Source: Roseburia hominis (GTDB lineage Bacteria; Bacillota_I; Bacilli_A; RFN20; CAG-826). From it: a DNA stretch of 64,000 nucleotides. Shown in pieces: positions 1,838 through 16,767 of the stretch. The translations under genes and the position numbers were made by a program. The DNA is taken from NCBI GenBank assembly GCA_963642055.1, contig CAVIFQ010000005.1, forward strand, positions 9,633 to 73,632. Reading direction: 5' to 3'. Below the pieces are notes generated by a model. The model saw only the letters and a program-made list of their open reading frames with translations, searched no databases and had not been told where the DNA came from. Each line of letters begins with the position of its first letter. Positions within the stretch are counted from its first letter, which is position 1.

Positions 1838-2203
1838 TCAATCCTCGTCTTTCTTGAGCGAAGAGAGCTCGCTTTCTTCTTTGGCGAGCGCCTGTTCTAG
1901 CGACTCGGCCCGCTCGAACTGGTCATCGTAGATAAAGACGATGTCCGGGGCTTTGTATAAGTCCATTTTCTTCGCTAGAGAGGAGCGGACGAAGCCTTTG
2001 CAGCGATTGAGCTCCTCCAAGTTTTGGCGCGGGTATTTCGCGCCGATGAAGGAGACATACACCTTCGCAAGCGAATTGTCGGAATTGATGACGACCTCAT
2101 TCACTGAGGGAATGCCGACACGCTTATTCTTGAGCTCGAAGGTGAGGATATCGGAGATATTCCTCCCGATGAGCGCCTTGACTCTGCCTTGCCTATCCGC
2201 CAT
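1838..2203 (-). CDS. rbfA: ribosome-binding factor A
   Basis: ~120-aa protein (RVKALIGRNISDIL...SVNEVVINSDNSLAKVYVSF) in the conserved position after infB. The ATG shares one base with the infB TGA stop; the track ORF starts one codon earlier at GTG. Confidence 0.9.
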   Translation of the reverse strand: MADRQGRVKALIGRNISDILTFELKNKRVGIPSVNEVVINSDNSLAKVYVSFIGAKYPRQNLEELNRCKGFVRSSLAKKMDLYKAPDIVFIYDDQFERAESLEQALAKEESELSSLKKDED

Positions 2204-4062
2204 CACTCTTTCTCCACGAGTTCGTAACCCTCGATGATGTCGCCTTCCTTGATGTCGTTATACCCATCGATCGAAAGGCCGCATTCATAACCTTCTTTGA
2301 CTTCTTTGACGTCGTCTTTGAAGCGCTTGAGGGAGGCTAAATCGCCTTCGTAGATTATTACGCCAGCGCGTAAGAGTCTAACTTTCTCTTTGGCCTTAAG
2401 TTCGCCTGAGGTGACATAGGATCCAGCGACGGTGCCAACATGGGTGATTTTATAGATATGTCTCACTTCGGCTTGACCGGTCACTTTCTCCACCATCTCG
2501 GCTTTATACATGCCTTTGAGAGCGGCATTCATATCATCGAGGAGTTGATAAATGATTCGATATGGCCTGATCTCGACATGCTCTTCTTTCGCTTTCTCGT
2601 TGACGCGCGCGTCAGGTCTGATATTGAAAGCGTAGATAAGCGCGTTAGAGGCACTCGCTAGAAGGACATCGCTGTCGCTGATAGCCCCAGCCGCCGCGCT
2701 GATGACGTGGATATGGACGTGCTCGTTGCTGCATTTCTCTAAGGAGGCTTTCACAGCTTCCGCGCTTCCCGCCGTATCTGCTTTAACCACGACATTGATA
2801 TCTTTGATTTTCCCGGCGTTCACGAGGTTATTGAGGTCCGACAAAGAGAGAGCTGCGCTCCCGCTTTGGGTCTGCTCTTTTTTGGCAAGCGCCCTTCTTT
2901 CGGCGATGGCTTTGGCTTCTTTCTCGGTTGGGAAAGCCATGAAGCGGTCGCCCGCGCTTGGGACGGCGCTTAAGCCGGTGACCGAGACTGGCGTGCTAGG
3001 AAGAGCAGTTCTCACGACTTGCCCGTATTCGTTGCACATCCTTCTGATTTTGCCGTATATCTCCCCCACGACGACGTAATCGCTGTTATTGAGGGTGCCG
3101 TTTTGGACAAGCAAGGTGGCTTTTGGCCCTTCGCCTTTATCGAGATTGCTCTCTAAGACGGTGCCGATCGCATAACGATTCGGGTTGGCCTTAAGTTCCA
3201 TCATCTCGGCTTTTAGGAGTATTGCATCAAGCAAATCATTGATGCCTTTCCCGGTTTTGGCGGAGAGAGGGATCATCATCGTATCGCCGCCATAATCCTC
3301 GGCGATGATGTTATGGGCCATGAGCTCTTGCTTGACCCTATCCACATTCGCGCCAGGCTTATCCATCTTGTTGATGGCCACGATTATCTCGCATCCGGCG
3401 GCTTTCGCGTGGTCGATGGCCTCCAAGGTCTGAGGCATCACTCCATCATCAGCGGCCACCACAAGCACCGTGATATCGGTGACTTGGGCGCCGCGCGCTC
3501 TCATGGCGGTGAAGGCGGCGTGCCCTGGGGTATCGATGATGGTGATTTTCTTGCCACCGTACTCTTTTTGATAAGCGCCGATCGCTTGGCTGATGCCCCC
3601 GGCTTCATGCGATGCCACATCGCTGTTTCTGATGGCATCGATAAGCGTGGTCTTGCCATGATCAACGTGCCCCATCACGGTCACGATGGAGGGGCGCTCT
3701 TCAAGATCTTTCGGGTCATCGACGATCTCGAGTTCCTCGAAGTGGTCGGCATCGACGATCTTCTCTTTCTTGAAGTCGTAGCCGTATTCCAAACATAAAG
3801 TACCTATCGTCTCATCATCGAGCAACTGGTTGATGGTGACCATCTTCCCCTGCATGAAGAGGTATTTGATGATCTGGACGCTCGGGACGTTGATGGCTTT
3901 GCTTAAATCGGCCACCGAGAGAGGTTTGGAGTAGACGAAGACCCCGCCATTGACTTTGGCGAATTCCTCTTTCTTTTTGCCCATGGGGTGCGAGGCGAAG
4001 TTTTCGATTCTCCGCTTCTGGTTGTCATTCTTTTTGGAATGGAATTGCTGCGTTTTCTTCAT
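2203..4062 (-). CDS. infB: translation initiation factor IF-2 (short N-terminal form)
   Basis: GTPase motifs [17 protein letters not shown] and NKMD, with conserved IF-2 C-terminal domains. AAAGGAGA RBS upstream. Confidence 0.95.
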
Positions 4063-4343
4063 CGTGTCTCCTTTCTTAATAATGAGGTGGCCGCTTTTTT
4101 ATCGGTTACGAGGATGAGGCTCACTTCGGGGTAGCCCAAGGCTTCCCCTAGCTCTATCTTGCTATAACGTTCGATTACGGGGATATCCTCTAGAAGATGG
4201 CTCACTTCCTTTTTGGTGTTGAGACTCGCATCGCTCGCTAGAAAGGCCAATCTCCCCTTGGAGGAATATTTGGCTTCATTCCCTATAAGAGCCTTATGGC
4301 CCTTGAAGAGGATCCCGATAAATCCGAGCGTGGAGTCATTCAT
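4059..4343 (-). CDS. ylxQ: L7Ae-family RNA-binding protein YlxQ
   Basis: 94 aa located between ylxR and infB. GFIGILFKGHKALIGNEA and the following sequence are typical of the YlxQ/L7Ae-like family. Confidence 0.8.
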   Translation of the reverse strand: MNDSTLGFIGILFKGHKALIGNEAKYSSKGRLAFLASDASLNTKKEVSHLLEDIPVIERYSKIELGEALGYPEVSLILVTDKKAATSLLRKETR

Positions 4344-4350
4344 CTTCTTT

Positions 4351-4608
4351 CTATTTTCCTTTGTATAAGCTTTTGATATCTTCTTCCTTTACCTTGACTT
4401 TGAAGGCGCGGGAGAGGAGTTTGCCGTTTTTTAAGGCCTCTAGGCTACTTTCATCCTTTTTGATATAGGCGCCTCGCCCAGGCTTTGATAAGTCAGCATC
4501 GAATTCGACATGGCCATCGATATAGACGAGACGGAGGAGCTCATCGCGGGGGAATACTTCTCCCGAGATGATATCCTTCCGATAAATCGTCTTTTTATTT
4601 GTCGTCAT
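4351..4608 (-). CDS. ylxR: YlxR/DUF448 RNA-binding protein
   Basis: The 85-aa core is MTTNKKTIYRKDIISGEVFPRDELLRLV...GRGAYI. I place the start at the internal ATG (4606-4608), which overlaps the nusA stop by 14 nt. The 154-aa track ORF is an out-of-frame run through the nusA 3' end. Confidence 0.8.
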   Translation of the reverse strand: MTTNKKTIYRKDIISGEVFPRDELLRLVYIDGHVEFDADLSKPGRGAYIKKDESSLEALKNGKLLSRAFKVKVKEEDIKSLYKGK

Positions 4609-6295
4609 CGTAATAGCTGTCGTACTGGTCGAGATCCTCGTCTTCGTCCAAATTATCGAGGTCATTCGACATATTCTCCTCTTGCTCGATCTGCTCAAGC
4701 TCTTCTTGGGAATAGATCGGCATCGCATCGACTGCAGGAGTGACTTCGCTGCTTTTGACGCGTTCCACTTCTTCTTCGGTGATCTTATGCGGACGCTTGG
4801 CCTTGGGGTTGCCACGGGTAGAGGTAGCAGCTGGCTTGCTCTTGGCTTTCTCTAGCTCTTCCTCGAGCTCAGAGAGGCTCTTCGTGGTCTTCACCTCGGC
4901 GTGTTCAACGACTTTGGCTGGCTCTTCTTCTTTGACGAGTGGAGCAACAGTCTCGACTGGTTTATCTTCGGTAGTGGCTGGTTTATCTTCGGTAACTGGA
5001 GCAACATTCTCAGTCGGAGCGACAACAGTCTCTTCCTCTTTCTTCGCTTCGGCGGCTTGCTCGCGTTTGGCGGCCTCTAAAGCGGCGCTCTTACGGGCAT
5101 ATTCCTCTCTTTCCTCGGCTTTCTTCTCTTCTTCGGCCTGTTTCTGGAGGATATCGGTTGGTGTGTAGTCGATATCTTCGTCTTTGGCGATTGATTCCTC
5201 GACGATATCGATGTTCCAGCCGGTGAGCTTATTCGCTAGACGCGCATTCGCGCCTTTTTTGCCGATGGCTAAAGAGAGCTGCTCATCGCGCACGACGGCA
5301 ATGGCCTTTGGTTTCGGGGTAACATTCGCATCAACGATCTTCACGCCGAGAACCTGCGCTGGGCGAAGAGAATCGGCGATATATAATCCTGGGTTCTTGC
5401 TATAGGCGATGATATCGATCTTCTCTTTGTCGATGCCGTTACCGAGTTGAGCGACGATTTTCTGGATCCTATTCCCGCCTTGCCCAATGCAAGCGCCGGT
5501 TGGATCAACATCGGGGTTGGAAGTATAGACGGCGACTTTGCTTCTGACGCCTGCTTCGCGCGCGATGCCTTTAATAACGACCGTGCCATCATAAATCTCA
5601 TGGATTTCCTCTTCAAAGAGGCGGCGGAGAAAGCCTTCGCTCGAGCGAGTGACTTCAATCTGGGAGCCGCGGGAGGATTTCCCGTCCTCCGCCACTTGCT
5701 TCACTTCCTGGATATAGACTTTGATGCTGTCGCCAATGCGGAAGAACTCATCGCCGATCATCTCTTTGCGGGTCAACTCGACAACCGTTCTCCCGATATT
5801 GACGGAGACGCTTCTTTCATCGGCTTTCTCCACGGTGCCAGTGATCATCTCGCCGATATGGTCTTTGTAGATATCGTAAAGCGCGCTTCTTTCGGCTTTG
5901 CCGAGCTCGTTTCTTAGATTCCCTTTGACCGCGTTAGCGAAAACCTTCGATAGTTCAGCGACGGTCGCTGGGATTGGGTAGTTATCCCCTTCTTTCCAAA
6001 TCGGTGCGCCGAGACCTTCATTGGCCTCTTCCACATCGATCTCGAGATAATCGTCTTGGACGTCTTTGACGACTTTCTTGATCTGGGCAAGATAAATGGA
6101 GCTGTTGTCGAGATCGATTTTCACCTCCACCACGGCATCGTCGCCTCCGCCTAGATACTTGACGTAAGCTTTCCTTAAAGCCTCGGTCAAAGCGGCGATG
6201 ACGCTTTCTTCGCTTAATCCTTTGGCGTTGGCGATTTCTTTCACCGCATCGATGAGTTTCGGCATGATGACGGCATTTTTCTTTTTGTTTGGCAT
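4595..6295 (-). CDS. nusA: transcription termination/antitermination factor NusA with a ~195-aa E/K/A-rich, acidic C-terminal extension
   Basis: NusA N-terminal, S1 and two KH domains are recognisable (up to GKKGANARLANKLTGWNIDIV). A low-complexity tail follows, ending DEDEDLDQYDSYYDDDK. Confidence 0.95.
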   Translation of the reverse strand: MPNKKKNAVIMPKLIDAVKEIANAKGLSEESVIAALTEALRKAYVKYLGGGDDAVVEVKIDLDNSSIYLAQIKKVVKDVQDDYLEIDVEEANEGLGAPIWKEGDNYPIPATVAELSKVFANAVKGNLRNELGKAERSALYDIYKDHIGEMITGTVEKADERSVSVNIGRTVVELTRKEMIGDEFFRIGDSIKVYIQEVKQVAEDGKSSRGSQIEVTRSSEGFLRRLFEEEIHEIYDGTVVIKGIAREAGVRSKVAVYTSNPDVDPTGACIGQGGNRIQKIVAQLGNGIDKEKIDIIAYSKNPGLYIADSLRPAQVLGVKIVDANVTPKPKAIAVVRDEQLSLAIGKKGANARLANKLTGWNIDIVEESIAKDEDIDYTPTDILQKQAEEEKKAEEREEYARKSAALEAAKREQAAEAKKEEETVVAPTENVAPVTEDKPATTEDKPVETVAPLVKEEEPAKVVEHAEVKTTKSLSELEEELEKAKSKPAATSTRGNPKAKRPHKITEEEVERVKSSEVTPAVDAMPIYSQEELEQIEQEENMSNDLDNLDEDEDLDQYDSYYDDDK

Positions 6296-6306
6296 ATATT
6301 TCCCTT

Positions 6307-6768
6307 TCAGAATTCAATGGCTAATCTGGCTTTGTCGAGGTATTCGCGCTTAATGGCGATATCCTTCTTCTTCGCTTTCTCCTTGATACGGAGAGTGATG
6401 TTATCTTCGTTCACATCGATGAGCGTACCCTCCAAGGTGTTCTTCCCTTCATAAGGATGCGAGAGATGGATATTCACGTAATGGTTGAGGTAGTGGTCTA
6501 GCTTATCTAGAGAGAGCGGCTTTTCAGCTCCTAGAGAGGAGACATCAAGCGTATAGGCTCCTTCAATCGGATCATTCTCATCTAGGATCGGATTGATGAG
6601 CTCGCTCACCTTAACTATATCATCGAGCGATATAGCTTCATCTCGATCCACCACGATCGAGAGGGTGCCTCCTGAGGAAGCCCGCGCGTAGGAGATAGAG
6701 AAGATCGAATAACCTTTTTCTCGCAATGGCCCTTCCAAAAGCTCTTTGACTTTGCTTGTTTCTTCCAT
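6307..6768 (-). CDS. rimP: ribosome maturation factor RimP
   Basis: MEETSKVKELLEGPLREKGYSIFSISY... is RimP-like and lies first in the nusA operon. Start chosen at the ATG 7 nt after GGAGG; the track ORF begins 19 codons upstream. Confidence 0.9.
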   Translation of the reverse strand: MEETSKVKELLEGPLREKGYSIFSISYARASSGGTLSIVVDRDEAISLDDIVKVSELINPILDENDPIEGAYTLDVSSLGAEKPLSLDKLDHYLNHYVNIHLSHPYEGKNTLEGTLIDVNEDNITLRIKEKAKKKDIAIKREYLDKARLAIEF

Positions 6769-6781
6769 CCATACCTCCATT

Positions 6782-6808
6782 AAAAACAAAGAGTGGCCTT
6801 TGCCACTC
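6782..6808 (-). terminator. leader hairpin plus U-tract immediately upstream of rimP (candidate attenuator)
   Basis: On the minus strand: GAGTGGC-AAAG-GCCACTC followed by TTTGTTTTT. It sits between the predicted promoter and the rimP RBS. Confidence 0.5.
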
Positions 6809-6860
6809 CACTTTTCGCGTTGCACAGCAGAACCTCTTCCGAGGGTTTTCCGCCTTGCTT

Positions 6861-6957: not shown

Positions 6958-6990
6958 TAACCTGCATTTTTGAAATATCATCGTAGGTTA
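6958..6990. repeat. copy A of a 32-33-bp dyad element (TAACCTRC - AT-rich core - GTAGGTTA)
   Basis: Sequence taacctgcatttttgaaatatcatcgtaggtta overlaps the stop codon of the HipA-like gene. It has the same orientation as copies B and C upstream of that gene. Confidence 0.85.
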
Positions 6991-8291
6991 TCTTTGATAT
7001 TCTCTAGGCGCTTCTGCCCGTTTAAGAGGAAGGCGATGAGAGTAGTTTCATCGACTTTGATGGATATATCATCTAGTATCGCGCGGATATCCTTTTCGTC
7101 TATCTTCTTGATATACAAAGAAGCGAAAAGCTCGCGCGCCTTCGCGTCTTTCTTTAAGAAACGCACAAGATAATCAATCAACCCGTCGCTTTTTCTAGAG
7201 ACATCGTGCGGATAGCCGTTCACCGATAGAAGAGCGATGTTGTTATCGAAATTGGGGGATAAAGAGATGATGCGCCCACTCTTCCGATCGCGGAGGAACC
7301 CGCAGTTCTCGTTGTGGCGGTCGACATTATTGACGAGGCAGTCGAAATATAGAAGCTGTAGATACTCTTTCGTGATGTCTTCGTTGAGCTCTAGTAGGAG
7401 CGGAAAGACATGCTCATAGGTATCATCGTCTTTGCCAGCGAGCGAAGAAAGCGGCTCGAAATTGACTTCCGTCGCAAAGTTCTTCGTCTTGATGTAGCCA
7501 TCAATCAATTCATACTCGGCCGATTTTATTCCAAGAGCGATAGCCAAACGGGAGCAGAAATACTCCGAGAAGAGCTCCTTCTCATTCCCTTTCTTCACTA
7601 GATACCAACACCCATCGATTCTTTTCCAGCATTTCTCGTAGCTCCCTCCTAAAGTGAGCTCCGGGGTGAGTCGCGCTTTCGAAGGAAGATAGAAAACATC
7701 TCCTTTCAAAGCGAGACTCGCATATTCATCGGAGAAGATGGAGACATCTTTCCAGCGTAATTTGGATTTAAAGGGCTTGAACCAGTAATCGTCAGTCAAA
7801 GAGATGGCGTGGACCGCTAAAGAGGTCTCAGTTTCATTATATGAGCTGATACCGAGTATCTTCTTGAGGAGACGCGAGTTATGGCGGCTCGAGTCAATGC
7901 TCCTAGAAGAAAGCCAGCTCTCGAGATTCTTCGACTTCAATATAGATAAGGGGGCCTTTGCTTCATTGATATAGGTGAGTCCCCCTTTTTTGAAGCGCGC
8001 GACCACTTCGTCTTTCTCCATCACTTCTCCGTCGAAAGAAGAAGCGGATGGCGATAAAGGCGATAAAGGAGGCGAAGATGGTAAATCATTCAAAAGGCTC
8101 TCCAGTTCCTTTCGTCTCTCGATAGCAGCCTTTATTCGCCCCACTTCCGCTTCTTTGATGTATTCGCTTTTGACTTTATTTCCTTCGCGGCGCTGAAGAT
8201 AGTACCTCTTTTTGTTTCCGATCCTCTTGACGGAAATATAGCCTTCAGGGAGAGATGATAACTCTTTTAATATTGCATCCTTATCCATCAT
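6978..8291 (-). CDS. HipA-family serine/threonine kinase-like protein (toxin-type) with an extra ~70-aa N-terminal module
   Basis: The C-terminal half has the HipA_C-like catalytic loop LVNNVDRHNENCGFL and an upstream DDYWFKP motif. No HipB/XRE gene is adjacent. Confidence 0.65.
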   Translation of the reverse strand: MMDKDAILKELSSLPEGYISVKRIGNKKRYYLQRREGNKVKSEYIKEAEVGRIKAAIERRKELESLLNDLPSSPPLSPLSPSASSFDGEVMEKDEVVARFKKGGLTYINEAKAPLSILKSKNLESWLSSRSIDSSRHNSRLLKKILGISSYNETETSLAVHAISLTDDYWFKPFKSKLRWKDVSIFSDEYASLALKGDVFYLPSKARLTPELTLGGSYEKCWKRIDGCWYLVKKGNEKELFSEYFCSRLAIALGIKSAEYELIDGYIKTKNFATEVNFEPLSSLAGKDDDTYEHVFPLLLELNEDITKEYLQLLYFDCLVNNVDRHNENCGFLRDRKSGRIISLSPNFDNNIALLSVNGYPHDVSRKSDGLIDYLVRFLKKDAKARELFASLYIKKIDEKDIRAILDDISIKVDETTLIAFLLNGQKRLENIKDNLR

Positions 8292-8506: not shown

Positions 8507-10081
8507 CTATATTTCAACGTACTCAATCTTCGAGCGATGCTTCAGACTCTTCGAGTCGTAAGCGATGCCTAGGAGCATCACTTTGCCGTGATATCCATTG
8601 AGCGTCGAGACGTAGTTCCTGTCCTTGATCTGCTTTATGGCCTCATCCGGAGAGTGATCGACTTTCAGCTCGATGATAATCGGGATATAGCCGGGCGCTC
8701 TCGGTGTGAAGAGCAGATCGGCCCTGCCCGTGGGGCAGTTCGGCTCTGGCGTGATCTTGTAGCATTTTTCCGCGTATTTGTACGAGATCCTGACGATCAC
8801 CGCGAGCACGCCCTCGTCGTTCTTGTTGAAGGGGGTCACGAGGTCGGCGTGGTTCTTGTCGAAGGTCTCGTCGATGTAGTCGGTGTTGCCTTTGAGGGTC
8901 TCCTCGAGGAGTTTCTTCGACTCCTGCATCGGGTTGTAGACGTCGGGCCAGGGGATATCCTGGATGGCGTTCACGATCTCGCCTTCTATCTCCTTGTTCG
9001 GGATGAAGCATTTTTTGCTCTCTTCCTCATACCCGAGATATCCAAGGTGTATGAGGACGGTGAGGGCGGCGTCTTTGCTATTCACATTCGTTAGATCGTT
9101 TCGGAACAGCTCGACGTTGACTGGCGCCTTCTCGCCGGCAAGCATCTTTATGATCTCGCCTTTGAGCGCCCCTCCGTCATAGTTCATGTATTCCTTGACT
9201 GGATCGATGTTGCCGGTCGATGTCCAGTAATTCCCGCACAGATGGTCCGTCAAAGCCTCGACGACCGATTTCGGGTTGTAGATCTCGATTCCACTTAGCC
9301 TATATCCATCGTACCAGCTCTTTATCTCGGAGAAATCCATACTCCACTTCTCGCATAGCTCTTTCACCTCTCCCTCGGTGAAGCCGAAGGAGTCGGGGAT
9401 ATCCCGAGGGTTCAGCATGTTGTATTCCTTGAAGTTGTTGAGGTCGGATTCGGAGGAATACCTCTTGATCGGGAGGATGCCGGTCATGTAGACAAGGTCG
9501 AGATAGGATTGGGCGTCGCTCGATTTGAAAAGGGCGCTGAGGAGTTTCATGTAGGAGTCGCAGAGTTCTTTATTGCTCGCCTCTTTCCTGAAAAGAACGT
9601 CCCATTCGTCGATGAGGAAGATGAAGCGCTCCCCGGTCTCGTTGTTTATCCTGCTAAGGCATTCCATAATCGTTTTCTGGTTGCTCGTCAATATGCCGGG
9701 GAAGGCCTCGTCTAGATCCGATCTCACGAATCGCACCAGCTTGTTCAGGAAGGCTCTGCCGCTTCTGGAGTCGTTATAGATCGATGCCATGTCGATCCAT
9801 ATCACGTTGTGCTTGTTGAGATGGCTCTCGAAAGAGGGGTCATCGTATATTTTGAGCCCTTTGAATAGTTCTTTGGAGGAGCAGCCTTTCGAGTAGTAGG
9901 CGTTGAGCATGGAGAGGGCCATGCTTTTGCCGAAGCGTCGGGGGCGCGTCACGCACATGAATCTCTTCGCTTTGCCGATGGAATCGTTCGTCGCCTTGAT
10001 GAGCATCGATTTGTCCACATAGATATCGTCATGGACGTTATCCGAGAACGTTTTATTGCCCTTGTTGAGAAAAATTGGCAT
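8507..10081 (-). CDS. AAA-ATPase_like (PF09820-type) N-terminal domain fused to a PD-(D/E)XK nuclease domain (PDDEXK_9/DUF1703-type)
   Basis: N-terminal motif FMCVTRPRRFGKSMALSMLNAYYSKG. C-terminal motif GRADLLFTPR...IIIELKVD...AIKQIKDRNY. The family assignment is from memory of these motifs. Confidence 0.7.
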   Translation of the reverse strand: MPIFLNKGNKTFSDNVHDDIYVDKSMLIKATNDSIGKAKRFMCVTRPRRFGKSMALSMLNAYYSKGCSSKELFKGLKIYDDPSFESHLNKHNVIWIDMASIYNDSRSGRAFLNKLVRFVRSDLDEAFPGILTSNQKTIMECLSRINNETGERFIFLIDEWDVLFRKEASNKELCDSYMKLLSALFKSSDAQSYLDLVYMTGILPIKRYSSESDLNNFKEYNMLNPRDIPDSFGFTEGEVKELCEKWSMDFSEIKSWYDGYRLSGIEIYNPKSVVEALTDHLCGNYWTSTGNIDPVKEYMNYDGGALKGEIIKMLAGEKAPVNVELFRNDLTNVNSKDAALTVLIHLGYLGYEEESKKCFIPNKEIEGEIVNAIQDIPWPDVYNPMQESKKLLEETLKGNTDYIDETFDKNHADLVTPFNKNDEGVLAVIVRISYKYAEKCYKITPEPNCPTGRADLLFTPRAPGYIPIIIELKVDHSPDEAIKQIKDRNYVSTLNGYHGKVMLLGIAYDSKSLKHRSKIEYVEI

Positions 10082-10128: not shown

Positions 10129-11319
10129 CTACGGCCTCCCTTTCCAGTCGGGCGAGAGCATCGCGCCACTCATCTCGTCCCATTTAAGGCTTCTGGCGGC
10201 CCGGACCACGTCTTTCGCGATCTCTTTGTTCGGGATGAAGCATTCTTTGCTCTTCTCGTCGTAACCTAGATAACCCAGGTAAATCAGCGTGGTCAAGGCC
10301 TCGTCTCTGTCATCGATCTCGTCGAGGCCGCCCCAGAACGAGCCGACGTCAACACGCAATCTCCCGCCGTCCATGAGCGCCTCGAAATCGCCTTTGAGCT
10401 CGCCGTTATTGAAATTCATGCACTGTGCGAGGGGATCGCGCGAGGCTGTGAATATCCAGCGCCCCTCGCACCTATCCTCAATGGCGTTGTTGACCGATAT
10501 CGGGTTGTAGATGGTTACACCATCCATCAGATAGGAGCCGAACCAGCATTTGATTTCGGAGAAGTCTCTGTCCCATTTGACGCATAGATCCTTGACCTCC
10601 TCTTCCGTGTAGCCGATGGACTCCCTTGTAACGGAAGGACGAGCGGCGCTGCAATCGATGAAATTGTTCAGCTCGCATCTGAGAGCGAATCTCTCGATAG
10701 GGAAGATGCCGGTCATGTAGACGAGGTCGATGCACCGAGAGACGTCGCCCGATTTGAAAAGGCTGCTCAAAAACCGCATGTAGGAATCGCAGAGGGCCTT
10801 GTTGGTGGGCTCTTTCCTGAAGAGCACGTCCCACTCGTCGATGAGGAAGACGAAGCGCTCCCCCTTGTTGCCAAGATCTTTAAGGGCAAGAGCAAGGGAA
10901 GATGACTCATCGGCGTCATGCTCGAGATGGGCGTCCGAAAAAGCTTCCTTGAGATCGAGATAGATGTACTTTTTGAGTTTTTTGACGAAGTCCTCACCTT
11001 CATCGAGCATGTTGTAGACCGATGCCATGTCGATCGATATCACGTTGTGTTTGTTGAGATGCTCTTCGAAAGAGGGATCATCGCATATCTTGAGGTTCTT
11101 GAACAGTTCCCTTGAATCGCAACCTTTCGAGTAGTAGGCGTTGAGCATCGAGAGAGCCATGCTCTTTCCGAAGCGTCTAGGCCGCGTCACGCACATGAAT
11201 TTGTCTGGAGTTCTGATGAGCTCATTGGTCTCCTTTATGAGCATCGATTTGTCTACGTAGATATCGTTTTTGAGGTTCTTGATGAACAGCGCGTTGTCTT
11301 GGTTTAGATAGAATGGCAT
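10129..11319 (-). CDS. truncated paralog of the upstream AAA-ATPase_like protein, lacking the PD-(D/E)XK domain
   Basis: Starts MPFYLNQDNALF...FMCVTRPRRFGKSMALSMLNAYYSKG and runs parallel to the neighbour as far as LGYLGYDEKSKECFIPNKEI, then ends. Start set at the ATG 8 nt after GGAGG; the track ORF adds 57 unrelated codons. Confidence 0.65.
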   Translation of the reverse strand: MPFYLNQDNALFIKNLKNDIYVDKSMLIKETNELIRTPDKFMCVTRPRRFGKSMALSMLNAYYSKGCDSRELFKNLKICDDPSFEEHLNKHNVISIDMASVYNMLDEGEDFVKKLKKYIYLDLKEAFSDAHLEHDADESSSLALALKDLGNKGERFVFLIDEWDVLFRKEPTNKALCDSYMRFLSSLFKSGDVSRCIDLVYMTGIFPIERFALRCELNNFIDCSAARPSVTRESIGYTEEEVKDLCVKWDRDFSEIKCWFGSYLMDGVTIYNPISVNNAIEDRCEGRWIFTASRDPLAQCMNFNNGELKGDFEALMDGGRLRVDVGSFWGGLDEIDDRDEALTTLIYLGYLGYDEKSKECFIPNKEIAKDVVRAARSLKWDEMSGAMLSPDWKGRP

Positions 11320-13024: not shown

Positions 13025-14386
13025 TTACAAGCAGAAAGTCATGTAGACGGGAAGAGCGATCGTCCCGTCTATTTTTACGCTGAGGTTTTTCGGGTGAATG
13101 ATATAGCTAGCCATGATTCGATCCTTGAACTTGGCTTTAAAAGCATCGAGGGAGCTCGTTTTGTATGATTTCCCCGATTTGACCTCGATCGGGATGAGTT
13201 TTTTCGATACTTTGCTCCCGGAAGTCAAAAGAAAATCGATTTCGATGTCGTTCCGGTGCTTCTCGGGGGAATATTGGGTATAAAAATAGAGCTTGTAGCC
13301 ATTCGCGACGAGGGATTGAGCGACGACGTTCTCGAAAAACATGCCCTTGTTTATCGATAGTTTCCCAGATAAGAGCTCCTTGTGGTAAAGAGGGTCCGCC
13401 TTCTCGCCGTCGGAGAGAGAATGCGTCAAAAGAAGGCCGGTATCGCCCATGTAGCATTTGATGTAGTTCCTTTTCTCGTTGAGCGAGAGGCCGAAATTCG
13501 GATCGGCGCACATGAAGCATTCGTTGCAGATGAGTGAATCGGCGAGCCAAAAGAAAGTCTCTTCGTAAGCGATGGCTGTATCTTCTTCCCTGATCGATTT
13601 TATCCTGACCCTTTTCTCGTGCTGGGAGAGAAAAGAGGGCAACTGATCGAAAATGGAAAGGACTTTCGCTTTATATGAGCGATCGATTTTGCCGATATCG
13701 TCCCGATAAGCGTCCAAAATATCCCTTTTCTCACTCTCGCATGCCTCGAATTGCTTGTTGTTGGCGATGAACTCATCGACGGCTTTGGGCATCCCGCCGA
13801 CCAGCATATACTGCTTGAACAAGAACATCGCTCTTTTGTGAAGCGGGTCAAGCAATGGCTCTTTTTTGTTGAAGCAGTCCTTGATGTAGTCGGTTAATCC
13901 CTTTTCGTTCAGCGCCCAGGCGAATTCCTCGAAATCCATCGGATACATCCTGAGTTTTCTCTCTTCGGAGGGGATTAGGATATTTTTCGTGTTCTCTTTT
14001 ATCGAGATGAGAGAACCAGTCTCTATATAGTCGTAACGGCCATCTTTGACTAAATGCTTGATTGCCTCTCGCGCCCTCGGGAATGATTGGACCTCATCAA
14101 AGATAAGAAGGGATTCCCGAGGATACAAGGTTGTCTGATATTCCACCGAGAGGATCATGAAAAGGGAATCCAAGGAATCGAGCATATCGAGGAAGGCGTT
14201 TTTGATGGACGGCTTAGCCTTCGAGAAATCGATCAGGATATAGCTTCTGTAATTCTCTTTCGCAAACTGCTCAACGATGGTCGATTTGCCAATGCGCCTA
14301 GCCCCCTCTATCAAGATAGCTTTCTTCCCTTGGCACTCCTTTTTCCATTCGAGCAGTTTATCGTATACCTTTCTTTTGAAAATCAT
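13025..14386 (-). CDS. AAA_14 ATPase with DUF4143 C-terminal domain
   Basis: Walker A is GARRIGKST and Walker B-like is LLIFDEVQ. The architecture is typical of the widespread 'ATP-binding protein' family of unknown function. Confidence 0.75.
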   Translation of the reverse strand: MIFKRKVYDKLLEWKKECQGKKAILIEGARRIGKSTIVEQFAKENYRSYILIDFSKAKPSIKNAFLDMLDSLDSLFMILSVEYQTTLYPRESLLIFDEVQSFPRAREAIKHLVKDGRYDYIETGSLISIKENTKNILIPSEERKLRMYPMDFEEFAWALNEKGLTDYIKDCFNKKEPLLDPLHKRAMFLFKQYMLVGGMPKAVDEFIANNKQFEACESEKRDILDAYRDDIGKIDRSYKAKVLSIFDQLPSFLSQHEKRVRIKSIREEDTAIAYEETFFWLADSLICNECFMCADPNFGLSLNEKRNYIKCYMGDTGLLLTHSLSDGEKADPLYHKELLSGKLSINKGMFFENVVAQSLVANGYKLYFYTQYSPEKHRNDIEIDFLLTSGSKVSKKLIPIEVKSGKSYKTSSLDAFKAKFKDRIMASYIIHPKNLSVKIDGTIALPVYMTFCL

Positions 14387-14432: not shown

Positions 14433-14528
14433 AAAAGCGCAATCATCGAAAAGGCGATTTTGCCGGAAAAGCGCAATCATCGAAATGGCTATTTTGCCGG
14501 AAAAGCGCAATCACCGATATACCGATAT
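14433..14528. repeat. 34-bp tandem repeat x2.5, then CCGATAT x2
   Basis: aaaagcgcaatcatcgaaaaggcgattttgccgg is followed by aaaagcgcaatcatcgaaatggctattttgccgg and then aaaagcgcaatcaccgatataccgatat. It starts 47 nt upstream of the ATPase ATG (14386) and lies in the divergent spacer to the XRE gene. Confidence 0.9.
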
Positions 14529-14705
14529 GAGTAAAAAAAACGCCATTATAAAGAGATGAAATTGAGTCAAAAAATCGGATGGATTTTGATGATAAAACAC
14601 CCATTTTCAGGGTCGTCCATCTTCCGCTTGTATATAGGATAGGAAAGTGTTTTAATTTGGCCTCAGGCGAATTTTGCAAGTAATAGAACAGGGGGTGATT
14701 TTTCT

Positions 14706-15098
14706 ATGAATCGAGCAACTTTCATCGACAAAAGAAGGATTGGGGAATCCATCAAATCCCTGCGCAGAAAGAAGAGGCTCACCCAAGCTGATTTAGCGGA
14801 ACGCACTGGTTATAGCGTCCGCACCTTGCGCCGGATCGAGAAGGAGGGCACGGATAACCTCTCGATCATCCTCGTCTTCGCGGAAGCATTAAAAGTCTCT
14901 CCGCTCGACATCCTGAAAGGATGTTTTCTTTTTATACGGAAAAAAGCACTGGCGGGTTTCCCCGTGCAGCGCTTACTCCCATCTGTTATTCATGCACGTT
15001 CACGCCAGGCTGAGCCTATAAGAGCTACCCATAAGCTTCTGGAATGGGCTTTCGCCGCAACAACGGAAGGAACTCGATTATCCTTCAACTTTCAGTGA
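14706..15098 (+). CDS. XRE-family helix-turn-helix regulator; only the first ~72 aa are HTH-like
   Basis: LRRKKRLTQADLAERTGYSVRTLRRIEKEG...FAEALKVSPLDIL is a classic HTH_3 domain. The remaining 58 aa have no recognisable character and run antisense to the structured-RNA candidate. Confidence 0.65.
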   Translation: MNRATFIDKRRIGESIKSLRRKKRLTQADLAERTGYSVRTLRRIEKEGTDNLSIILVFAEALKVSPLDILKGCFLFIRKKALAGFPVQRLLPSVIHARSRQAEPIRATHKLLEWAFAATTEGTRLSFNFQ

Positions 15099-15473
15099 GC
15101 TTCAGCTATTCTTTTGGGGCCATTTTCAGTAGCCAATGACTCCGGCTTTCACCTACTCGCACCCGTCAAAGCAGTTATAGGGGGTTTCCCCTCATCAAGC
15201 CGCGCACTTCCTTTGGGAACGCAGATGCGCTTTTCCCAGAAGCGCATCATCTCGTGGGACATATTTCTATGGAGCCTCTTCTCGTGCCTGCTCGGACGGT
15301 CATTTACATAAAGAAGCGCGCTGCGCCATTAGCCAAAGCGGTCTTTTGATCCCGGGTACCTAATAGGTCTTGATCGCGAGATGATATCTCATCACGTCCT
15401 CTCTCTTGGTTACGCCCCAGCCATCAAGCAAGATGACTTCACTGGGTTCCAATGCCACTCTCCGAAGAGAGCA
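14940..15473 (-). ncRNA. candidate large structured non-coding RNA (~530 nt), family unassigned
   Basis: No minus-strand ORF of 60 aa or more. It starts after an extended -10 (TGTATAAT) and ends at a GAAA-capped hairpin plus T6. Many hairpins are capped by UUCG, GAAA or GAUA loops when read on the minus strand only. Confidence 0.35.
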
Positions 15474-15479
15474 AGATGG

Positions 15480-15487
15480 ATTATACA
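15480..15487 (-). promoter_or_regulatory. extended -10 element TGTATAAT
   Basis: A perfect TGnTATAAT on the minus strand, directly after the upstream gene's terminator. No strong -35 is present. Confidence 0.4.
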
Positions 15488-15491
15488 GACG

Positions 15492-15533
15492 AAAAAGATA
15501 AAAGCGTGAGGACAGAAATTGTCCGCTTTTTTC
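15492..15533. terminator. bidirectional rho-independent terminator
   Basis: AAAAAGATAAAAGCG(TGA)GGACA-GAAAT-TGTCC-GC-TTTTTT: the hairpin is flanked by an A-rich run and a T run. It lies 3' of the DUF4143 ATPase gene. Confidence 0.55.
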
Positions 15534-15539
15534 TACTTA

Positions 15540-16727
15540 TTACCTCGAGAGCCAATCGGCGATATCGATGATTCTGATGCCTTTATAGTCGTATTCCGGA
15601 TGGGAGGTTCTCGCTAAAAGGATGCGCGGATAGAGGTCTTTGATTTTTAGAAGTGGGTCCACTTCTCTCGCGAAGGTCTCTTCGCCTGATATATCATCGG
15701 AGACCTGAATGTAGATTCTCTCGTCTCTTTTTAGGGCCACGAAGTCGATTTCCTTTTTATAGAGCATCCCCACGTAGACCTCATACCCTCTTCGTAGTAA
15801 CTCAATGGCCACGATATTCTCGTAAACTCGCCCATAATCCATATTTCTGATGCCTAGAGTAGCGTATTTCAAGGAATGGTCGCAGAGATAGTATTTGTCA
15901 GAGGAGGTGAGATACTTCCTTCCCGCGAGGTCGTAACGCTTGATTTTATAGAAGAGGAAGGATTGGCATAGACTCTCAATATAGGAGCCGACGGTCTTAT
16001 CGTTCGTCTTCATCACGTTGCTACTCAAAACTTTCCTGATATTGCTGATGGAAGTAAGACTTGCGATATTATCGATCAAAAACGAAGAAATCTTCCTCAA
16101 TAGAACCTGATTCCTGATCCGTTTTCTCTTGATCAGATCCCTCTGGATGATCGTTTCATAAACCGTCGAGATATAGTCGTATTTCCTCTTTTCATTAGGA
16201 TATAGGTAGGAGCCAGGAAATCCCCCTTCATTGACGTAACGATCAAAGGAGAAGGAAGAAGGGGTAAGCTCATGGTAATTCATGAATTCCTTGTAGGAAA
16301 AAGGGAAAACCTTTATCTCGATCGCTCTACCCGTGAAAAGGGTCGCGAGGTCGCTGCTCAATAAAAACGCGTTTGAGCCCGTGAGGTATATATCGTAATT
16401 GCCCGTGGAGTGAAGGCTATTTATCGCCTTCTCGAAGTTCTCGCATAGCTCAACTTCGTCGATGAGCAGGAAATTCTCGCTCCCCTCTTTGTATCGCGAG
16501 ACGATGTATTCATATAATTTGTGGTAATCCTGCAGCTCCTCAAATTCGATTTTGTTGAAATCGATGCAGATGAGATTCGCATCTTGACGATTCTTCACGA
16601 GATACTCGAAAAACGATTCCATGAGAATCGATTTCCCTGAGCGTCGGACGCCCGTGATGACTTTGATATCCGGCGTCCCCATGAGTTCGATTAGTTCATT
16701 CAAATAAGGCCTTTCGATTATTTTCAT
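15540..16727 (-). CDS. AAA_14 ATPase with DUF4143 C-terminal domain (second paralog)
   Basis: Walker A is GVRRSGKS and Walker B-like is FLLIDEVE. Start set at the second ATG (8 nt after GGAGG); the track ORF starts 2 codons earlier. Confidence 0.75.
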   Translation of the reverse strand: MKIIERPYLNELIELMGTPDIKVITGVRRSGKSILMESFFEYLVKNRQDANLICIDFNKIEFEELQDYHKLYEYIVSRYKEGSENFLLIDEVELCENFEKAINSLHSTGNYDIYLTGSNAFLLSSDLATLFTGRAIEIKVFPFSYKEFMNYHELTPSSFSFDRYVNEGGFPGSYLYPNEKRKYDYISTVYETIIQRDLIKRKRIRNQVLLRKISSFLIDNIASLTSISNIRKVLSSNVMKTNDKTVGSYIESLCQSFLFYKIKRYDLAGRKYLTSSDKYYLCDHSLKYATLGIRNMDYGRVYENIVAIELLRRGYEVYVGMLYKKEIDFVALKRDERIYIQVSDDISGEETFAREVDPLLKIKDLYPRILLARTSHPEYDYKGIRIIDIADWLSR

Positions 16728-16767
16728 CCTCATATCCTCCTTTTTTCCTTAGAAGAGCGAATCAGCA

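Follow-up and report, generated by a model that had tools for sequence, protein, structure and literature searches.

The window analysed here is a stretch of 64,000 nucleotides from contig CAVIFQ010000005.1 of an assembly assigned to Roseburia hominis (GCA_963642055.1). An interval on its minus strand is best explained as a gene for ROOL, a large, structured non-coding RNA, and we hold this identification with high confidence. The family was described by Weinberg et al. in 2017 (PMC5737381). Cryo-electron microscopy (cryo-EM) by Kretsch et al. (2025) has revealed ROOL as a D4 homo-octameric cage of ~280 Å (PMC12286853), and the octameric cage is known for three ROOLs (PMC12286853; Ling et al. 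2025, summarised in PMC12515178). A further ROOL gene is in itself a routine find; the window's copy is an addition to a known family and the RNA itself is ordinary for the specialist. The chromosomal lineage to which it belongs adds three conserved features. An operator-like site keeps a fixed spacing to the promoter, a gene of the XRE type is linked to ROOL, and a terminator precedes the stop codon of that gene.

The whole window was searched with cmscan against Rfam 15. ROOL (RF03087) was found at 15470-14934 on the minus strand with a score of 174.3 bits, against a gathering score of 99.1, and an E-value of 2.4e-37. The model is covered from end to end (positions 1-574 of 574), and this is the sole match at gathering level within the 64 kb. 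A first-pass annotation of the same DNA had proposed a large minus-strand structured RNA of the OLE, ROOL or GOLLD class and had named as checks a cmscan search against Rfam and a search for homologues with covariation. The first of these returns a full-length ROOL on the expected strand, well above threshold, and the second yielded 26 relatives in which the fold is kept by compensatory changes (see below). The match is 537 nt long and the longest open reading frame (ORF) on the same strand has 37 aa, in agreement with the earlier statement that no minus-strand ORF of 60 aa or more is present. The description of the stretch as free of ORFs holds for the minus strand but not for the plus strand, where a 130-aa ORF for a helix-turn-helix (HTH) protein (14706-15098) enters it by 165 nt.

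Other RNA families were considered in the same searches and in a permissive cmscan of the region 14600-15800 (E <= 1). The OLE, GOLLD and raiA models had no match in the window or in the permissive scan, and RAGATH-12, which appeared over the ROOL 3' domain with 20 bits against a gathering score of 75, was treated as noise. GOLLD and OLE are likewise large, structured non-coding RNAs that form RNA-only homo-oligomers, and GOLLD also forms a cage and shares the usual phage and tRNA context of ROOL (PMC12286853); the sequences and secondary structures of both are unrelated to those of the window's RNA. The first-pass annotation had also likened a GUGCG motif at 15207 to the 5' end of a group II intron. 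That short motif and several GNRA loops are all that favors a group II intron fragment (5' end or domain I), to which we give virtually no credence. Neither Intron_gpII nor group-II-D1D4 matched at gathering level in the window or at E <= 1 in 14600-15800, domain V and an intron-encoded protein were not found, and ROOL accounts for the entire interval, with GUGC as the 3' side of one of its covarying helices (15287-15284 / 15207-15204).

The minimum free energy of the window's copy, taken as a single sequence, has an unremarkable z-score of -2.3, and the fold was therefore decided by comparative evidence. Relatives were gathered by exact-pattern scans of genomes and metagenomes. The pattern used for genomes was loose and returned mostly chance matches; among the matches listed, 7 of 119 loci are true ROOLs, all full-length by Rfam with 188-216 bits. 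A pattern specific to the window's subclade identified 25 metagenome loci in gut and rumen samples, 20 of them with full-length copies. The alignment used for covariation comprises 27 sequences, the window's copy and 26 relatives from gut and rumen genomes and metagenomes. A BLASTN search of the ROOL sequence against plasmids gave no match.

The window's ROOL is 65-76% identical to its relatives, yet it keeps 129 of the 133 consensus pairs as canonical pairs. When the Rfam pairing, as aligned to the window by cmscan, was projected on an independent MAFFT alignment of eight sequences, 74.6% of the positions were paired, compared with ~42% in controls in which the pairing was slid along the alignment. 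RNAalifold, run on the 27 sequences with no input from Rfam, arrived at the same multi-junction architecture, with 124 pairs, 67 of them compensatory. In a refined count over the same sequences 97.9% of pair cells are paired (36-42% in slid controls), double, compensatory changes occur at 73 of the 133 pairs (13-21 in slid controls), and none of 500 shuffles matches the observed pairing values. As read from this alignment, compensatory changes among the 27 relatives show that the helices, together with the contact between loop L8 and junction J6/8 described below, are maintained.

The same comparison bears on whether the interval might be a decayed or mis-called protein-coding gene, such as the tail of the HTH ORF or a 65-aa plus-strand ORF at 15114-15311, with the hairpins incidental. 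The 165-nt intrusion of the plus-strand ORF could be taken that way, and the ROOL locus of Ligilactobacillus salivarius was formerly annotated as a hypothetical protein (PMC5643018). Among the relatives, however, substitutions keep base pairs and not reading frames, the HTH tails past residue 76 vary in frame and length and mirror the ROOL antisense, and an intrinsic terminator lies ahead of the HTH tail. We regard a protein-coding origin as having next to no chance of being correct.

Several observations weigh against the assignment to ROOL, or against its being an active gene. The window's copy scores lowest of its group in Rfam (174 bits), its P3b helix has only 4 bp compared with 11 bp in the family consensus, and the cmscan alignment is poor over model positions 106-165. 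Transcription of the window's ROOL is inferred, read from the DNA only; its putative promoter has no recognisable -35 element, and a generic promoter scan found nothing there. The weak alignment can be accounted for, because P3b and P3c are short in the whole subclade: P3b has 4 bp (ACCU/AGGU) and P3c has 3 bp (CGG/CCG) with an A-rich loop. In other respects the RNA resembles its family. It shares the full-length model match, the length of ~535 nt (within the family range of ~520-660 nt), the multi-junction fold, the variable linker, the covarying L8-J6/8 contact and the motifs AACCCAGUGAAG...GCUGGG, UAUAAC, GUAG, UCAGCC and GAAUAAC. It differs in its G+C content of 51%, the shortened P3b, an extra 5' UUCG hairpin and its chromosomal location, and in its score, phage ROOLs reaching 215-363 bits compared with 174 here.

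The transcript probably extends from ~15473 to ~14938. All of the hairpins and motifs listed in the first-pass annotation were found where it had placed them, and some of them take on another meaning in the covarying fold. At the 5' end, the leader hairpin CUCUC-UUCG-GAGAG is present at 15471-15458 on the minus strand; it is peculiar to the window's copy and is no conserved element. Two relatives, L080 and L109, have a 5' extension of different sequence, and in the other relatives, which have no extension, the promoter occupies that place. The hairpin GAUGA-GAUA-UCAUC was confirmed at 15393-15380. The sequences GCGC-AGC-GCGC and GGU-GAAA-GCC, read earlier as local hairpins, are not among the conserved pairings in that form; the bases of the former belong to a covarying long-range helix (15324-15313 / 14979-14966), and those of the latter lie in the covarying helix 15153-15150 / 15097-15094. 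This second helix closes a variable linker (15149-15098, minus strand), which is unalignable and varies in length among the relatives. The counterpart of the linker is disordered inside the cage in the solved ROOLs (PMC12286853). The L18 hairpin is present, its stem covaries (helix 23), and its loop reads GUAGCUC in the window.

At the 3' end, helix P19 (CGGG-GAAA-CCCG, 14964-14953) is followed by the 3' strand of P1 (CAGUG, 14951-14947) and by six U residues at 14945-14940, all on the minus strand, as had been noted earlier for the hairpin and the U-run. This segment (14964-14940; helices 1 and 24) is a probable site of intrinsic termination, and transcription of ROOL would end at the U-run past the P19 hairpin and the P1 strand, near 14940. 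Most relatives share this 3' end; a few have an extra canonical terminator hairpin instead.

L8 (UGGGA, 15238-15234) and J6/8 (UCCCA, 15218-15214) are complementary on the minus strand. Over the 27 sequences the contact is 98.5% paired, and two of its pairs are G-C in some sequences and A-U in others (20:7 and 9:18). The contact is said to have been described in 2017, by Weinberg, as a covarying tertiary contact. In the solved octamer these base pairs constitute the conserved inter-subunit bridge B4 (PMC12286853). Since L8 and J6/8 are paired and covary, a cage-building element of the solved ROOLs is under selection in this lineage as well. By analogy with the three ROOLs seen by cryo-EM, the ~535-nt RNA would fold as a flat multi-junction monomer, and eight copies would assemble into a hollow, RNA-only cage, held together by bridges such as L8-J6/8 and with the variable linker inside.

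ROOL would be transcribed from its own extended -10 promoter on the minus strand, starting near 15473. The perfect extended -10 element reported in the first-pass annotation, TGTATAAT, was confirmed at 15487-15480 on the minus strand; the start is predicted ~7 nt downstream. In the relatives a TAnAnT box stands at a fixed distance of 7 nt upstream of a conserved CAUUGG. Most relatives also have TTGACA just 6 nt upstream of the TATAAT-like -10 box (alignment A2, columns 8-30; for example L133 and L151). This TTGACA is too close to the -10 box to serve as a -35 element, and it is missing from the window, L080 and L109.

When the upstream DNA was compared with the loci anchored on CAUUGG, an operator-like palindrome became apparent. 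In the window it reads GGACA-ATTTC-TGTCC followed by TCAC (15524-15506, minus strand), with its centre ~44 bp upstream of the predicted start. The form GGACA-N5-(T/C)GTCC with TCAC is found upstream of ROOL in every subclade locus with sufficient upstream DNA, whatever the upstream gene. Each of 22 subclade loci has the pattern once, and 135 other loci lack it; besides the window, the loci with the palindrome are L023, L050, L078, L080, L082, L109, L133-L157 and L160-L167. The half-sites, whose centres are separated by 10 bp, are conserved around a variable spacer, and the distance from the palindrome to the -10 box is fixed at 23-24 nt. Variants such as GGTCA...TGTCC and GGACA...CGTCC break the pairing with no compensation. 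The palindrome, which overlaps the -35 region, probably acts as DNA, as the site of a dimeric protein, and not as a hairpin in RNA, and its conservation suggests that expression in the ROOL lineage would be controlled through the GGACA-N5-TGTCC-TCAC site.

The first-pass annotation had read the hairpin at 15524-15510 as the terminator of the upstream DUF4143 ATPase gene. The hairpin is, however, kept ahead of ROOL even where a locus has an unrelated gene upstream, and is therefore part of the ROOL unit. A related reading sees in the palindrome no more than an RNA hairpin or terminator shielding ROOL from transcription that enters from upstream, with the HTH protein regulating something else. 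It draws on the longer stem (AAAGCG...CGCUUU) that contains the palindrome in the window, which is followed by a U-rich tract, and on L109, where seven T residues follow, so that in these two loci the structure could end the upstream gene. Most loci, however, have no U-run after the palindrome and have TCACAC and the promoter instead. The conserved half-sites, the variable spacer and the uncompensated variants also fit an insulating hairpin poorly, as does the fixed spacing of 23-24 nt to the -10 box, which recurs at a second promoter in the window and beside an RtcB gene in L162 (see below). We consider an insulator unlikely and prefer to regard the palindrome as a protein-binding site.

The second perfect GGACA-N5-TGTCC in the window lies at 11384-11370 on the minus strand. 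It is followed after 24 nt by TAGAAT and is located upstream of a gene for a PF09820 AAA-ATPase (ATG near 11318). About 0.06 exact matches to the palindrome are expected in 64 kb. The spacing equals that of the ROOL promoter, and the two promoters may share a regulator. A palindrome at 4782-4796 in L162 (the same in L163) stands between ROOL and a divergent gene for the RNA ligase RtcB (4848-6053), with TATAAT 23 nt away on the RtcB side; this RNA-repair gene may share the ROOL operator in L162.

Among possible binders of the palindrome we favor the product of the XRE-family HTH gene that converges on ROOL, acting as a dimer, and put the chance that it binds there at about even. The 130-aa ORF of this gene (14706-15098, plus strand) matches PF01381 HTH_3 (E 9.8e-9, residues 16-67) and overlaps the 3' end of ROOL, on the opposite strand, by 165 nt. 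The conserved protein consists of residues 1-76 (14706-14933), and the remaining 54 codons read the antisense of ROOL. Homologues with 48-72% identity occupy the same position in L080, L109 and L082. The gene is linked to ROOL in three of the seven genome loci, with the downstream flank cut off in at least three of the remaining four, and it is convergent with ROOL in at least 16 of the 20 full-length metagenome loci. A profile search from the protein side gave 755 related clusters and no name beyond 'XRE-family HTH'; in all four of the HTH members whose contigs were inspected, a full-length ROOL of the subclade lies convergently downstream. The HTH gene was not found in the phage ROOL loci examined, which lack the upstream palindrome as well. 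Some findings speak against this protein as the regulator: the link between HTH gene and operator is one of co-location alone, L136, L150 and L156 carry the palindrome with no HTH gene nearby, no copy of the palindrome was found upstream of the HTH gene itself, and the L. salivarius megaplasmid pMP118 has an HTH gene and no palindrome.

The HTH reading frame contains a feature of its own. An intrinsic-terminator-like hairpin, GACAUCC-UGAAA-GGAUGU, was detected by a terminator scan at 14907-14925 on the plus strand, with a U-run to ~14935. The element (14907-14935) is located inside the ORF and stops at the same point as ROOL; its hairpin is formed by the DIL.G codons. All 17 loci examined keep both the hairpin and the U-run, and equivalent terminator positions were obtained for 22 other loci, including L159 (pMP118). 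The residues encoded by the 3' arm vary (GC, GVS, GDV, GGC) with the pairing kept, and the D-I-L codons are always GAC AUC CUN despite the A+T-rich genomes. The motif GACAUCC...GGAUGU is found only at HTH 3' ends, including that of pMP118, where the HTH gene does not face ROOL. Since the conserved hairpin and U-run precede the stop codon in frame, the HTH mRNA probably ends before any stop codon is reached. Homology among the HTH proteins ends at DIL.G..FLF, and the tails beyond differ in frame and length and correspond to the antisense of the ROOL 3' end. The notion that the FLF tail is a mere by-product of the overlap with ROOL was dropped, as pMP118 has the same tail with no overlap.

The ROOL and HTH terminators end within ~10 nt of each other; if both work, the two transcripts would therefore end with no overlap. 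This bears on the proposal that ROOL serves mainly as a cis-acting antisense RNA, controlling the convergent HTH gene by way of their overlapping 3' ends, and not as a trans-acting cage. In most loci the HTH ORF does extend 35-165 nt into the ROOL 3' end, and antisense reads have been reported at the L. salivarius locus (PMC5643018). With terminators on both units so close together, however, the mature transcripts need not overlap; a covarying multi-junction fold of 535 nt far exceeds the needs of antisense pairing, and in pMP118 the HTH gene is in tandem with ROOL, not convergent. An antisense function as the main role is in our judgment very unlikely.

The arrangement in the HTH gene resembles that of brfA in Bacillus subtilis and, in effect, arfA in Escherichia coli, whose mRNAs end before the stop codon and whose products are kept low by trans-translation (PMC6881298). 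In brfA a rho-independent terminator lies in the coding region upstream of the stop codon, as it does in the window's HTH gene. The likeness is in gene architecture only; the product here is an XRE-type DNA-binding protein and not a ribosome rescue factor. By analogy with BrfA and ArfA, we infer that the level of the HTH protein would depend on trans-translation.

The closest parallel outside the subclade is the L. salivarius UCC118 megaplasmid pMP118. Its ROOL (130 bits) lies outside a prophage and is likewise beside an HTH gene. The gene, LSL_1884, encodes 90 aa and is located 78 nt downstream of ROOL in tandem, whereas the window's gene is convergent. Before its stop codon LSL_1884 has the same GACAUCC...GGAUGU hairpin and U-run, and it ends in a similar C-terminal DIL..G..FLF. 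Unlike in the window, no GGACA-N5-TGTCC is found upstream of the pMP118 ROOL, and the replicon is a plasmid, not a chromosome. The protein similarity between LSL_1884 and the window's HTH protein is weak (BLASTP E 0.005; hhalign probability 6%). Homology at the protein level could not be established, and the shared nucleotide hairpin is the stronger link. A tblastn search of the HTH protein against plasmids gave generic XRE matches only and missed LSL_1884. Cousin et al. (2017), in the one previous description of an HTH gene beside ROOL, proposed that the HTH protein may affect the expression or stability of the pMP118 long non-coding RNA (PMC5643018).

Two observations concern the leader of the HTH gene. 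In L082, L133-L137, L146, L148, L160, L164 and L166 a CGCUC...GAGCG hairpin lies ~90 nt upstream of the ATG, and the bases of its loop complement those that separate the Shine-Dalgarno sequence from the start codon, with at least five covarying sequence classes. The complementarity averages 5.9 nt within a locus compared with 4.35 nt between loci. The hairpin, which may be an anti-ribosome-binding-site element for translational control, is not clearly present in the window. A pairing of the leader GAGCG with the CGCUC of the ROOL L18 loop was also considered and was dropped, as L18 reads UAGCUC in the window and L080 and their leaders have no GAGCU.

The ROOL subclade of the window is chromosomal and lies outside any prophage or tRNA island. 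The neighbours are chromosomal genes, with rimP-nusA-infB at 2203-6825, a nitroreductase, a DegV protein, two PF09820 ATPases and a HipA-like kinase, and with genes for mannoside utilisation on the other side. Within ~15 kb of ROOL in either direction, phage structural genes, integrase genes and replication genes were not found, and the single tRNA of the window is 25 kb away. In L080, ROOL and the HTH gene are directly upstream of the same rimP-nusA-infB-rbfA operon, with infB 78% identical; in the window an additional ~8 kb of genes separates the HTH gene from rimP. From this synteny it follows that the position of ROOL has been inherited. ROOLs outside prophages were already noted by Weinberg et al. 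(PMC5737381).

These data have to be set against the view that the window's ROOL is ordinary phage cargo, residing in a prophage or a remnant beside tRNA genes. We found seven ROOLs in viral contigs (215-363 bits), all in tRNA islands, and this context is described as frequent for ROOL (PMC12286853). The genes nearby include candidate defence genes of the PDC-S01 family and the HipA-like kinase, which are often found in mobile islands. Yet none of the seven viral-contig ROOLs belongs to the window's subclade, which was met in no viral contig. The lack of phage genes within ~15 kb and the distance of the nearest tRNA argue in the same direction, and the shared position of ROOL-HTH ahead of rimP-nusA-infB, found in L080 as in the window, speaks for vertical inheritance with the chromosome. 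Phage cargo is accordingly a very improbable account, and a chromosomal lineage the one that we adopt. One of the ROOL-carrying viral contigs also has a group I intron (97 bits) in its tRNA island (L124, 11331-11582).

The cage formed by ROOL is larger than a ribosome, as was shown in 2025, and to our knowledge it has so far been tied to no function, partner or regulatory signal. The operator-like site, the reciprocal linkage with the HTH gene and the terminator before the stop codon are features that we take as possible leads on ROOL regulation. They could be combined in a scheme in which ROOL is one output of a small dedicated circuit of an XRE regulator, a non-stop mRNA and a damage response; as a whole this scheme is conjectural and rather improbable. 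In it the XRE-type regulator would bind GGACA-N5-TGTCC at about -44 of the ROOL promoter and would also bind other promoters, such as those of the RtcB RNA ligase in L162 and the PF09820 ATPase in the window. The regulator would be made from an mRNA that terminates before the stop codon, and its level would report trans-translation capacity. Cells would then make the ROOL cage as part of their response when translation or RNA is damaged, as by cleavage of tRNAs in a phage attack. If the regulator does control ROOL, the inducing signal would tell when cells make the cage, a direct route to its function; the circuit, if true, would provide the first physiological handle on ROOL function.

Several further features were observed near the ROOL-HTH unit. 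Two genes for AAA_14+DUF4143 ATPases flank it, at 13025-14386 and 15540-16733, and match the PADLOC candidate defence family PDC-S01 strongly (E 1e-104 and 4e-145). Genes of this type recur near ROOL-HTH in L142 (1599-2927 and 3416-4714) and L162 (2349-3641). In L142, a decaying duplicate of ~135 nt at 3150-3260 (the same in L145) comprises the operator and the promoter together with ~85 nt from the start of ROOL. An ATPase gene separates it from the intact ROOL, 1.7 kb downstream, which suggests that this gene was inserted at the ROOL 5' end in L142.

Between ROOL-HTH and rimP the window encodes the HipA-like kinase (6978-8291) and a PF09820 ATPase fused to a PD-(D/E)XK nuclease domain (8507-10081). 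L080 has no genes in that interval, and the window segment looks as if toxin- or defence-type genes had been inserted there as an island. A tandem array of 2.5 copies of a 34-nt unit (AAAAGCGCAATCATCGAAAAGGCGATTTTGCCGG), with 94% matches, lies in the intergenic spacer upstream of the HTH gene (14433-14517); a 78-aa minus-strand ORF there (14443-14679) has no family match and is probably spurious. The closest relative, L080 (CAVIJE010000014.1), comes from a bin labelled Sodaliphilus, a genus of Bacteroidota. Its contig, however, has strong Shine-Dalgarno sites, promoters of the sigma-70 type and a rimP-nusA-infB-rbfA operon in the Bacillota style, and the label probably reflects a binning error.

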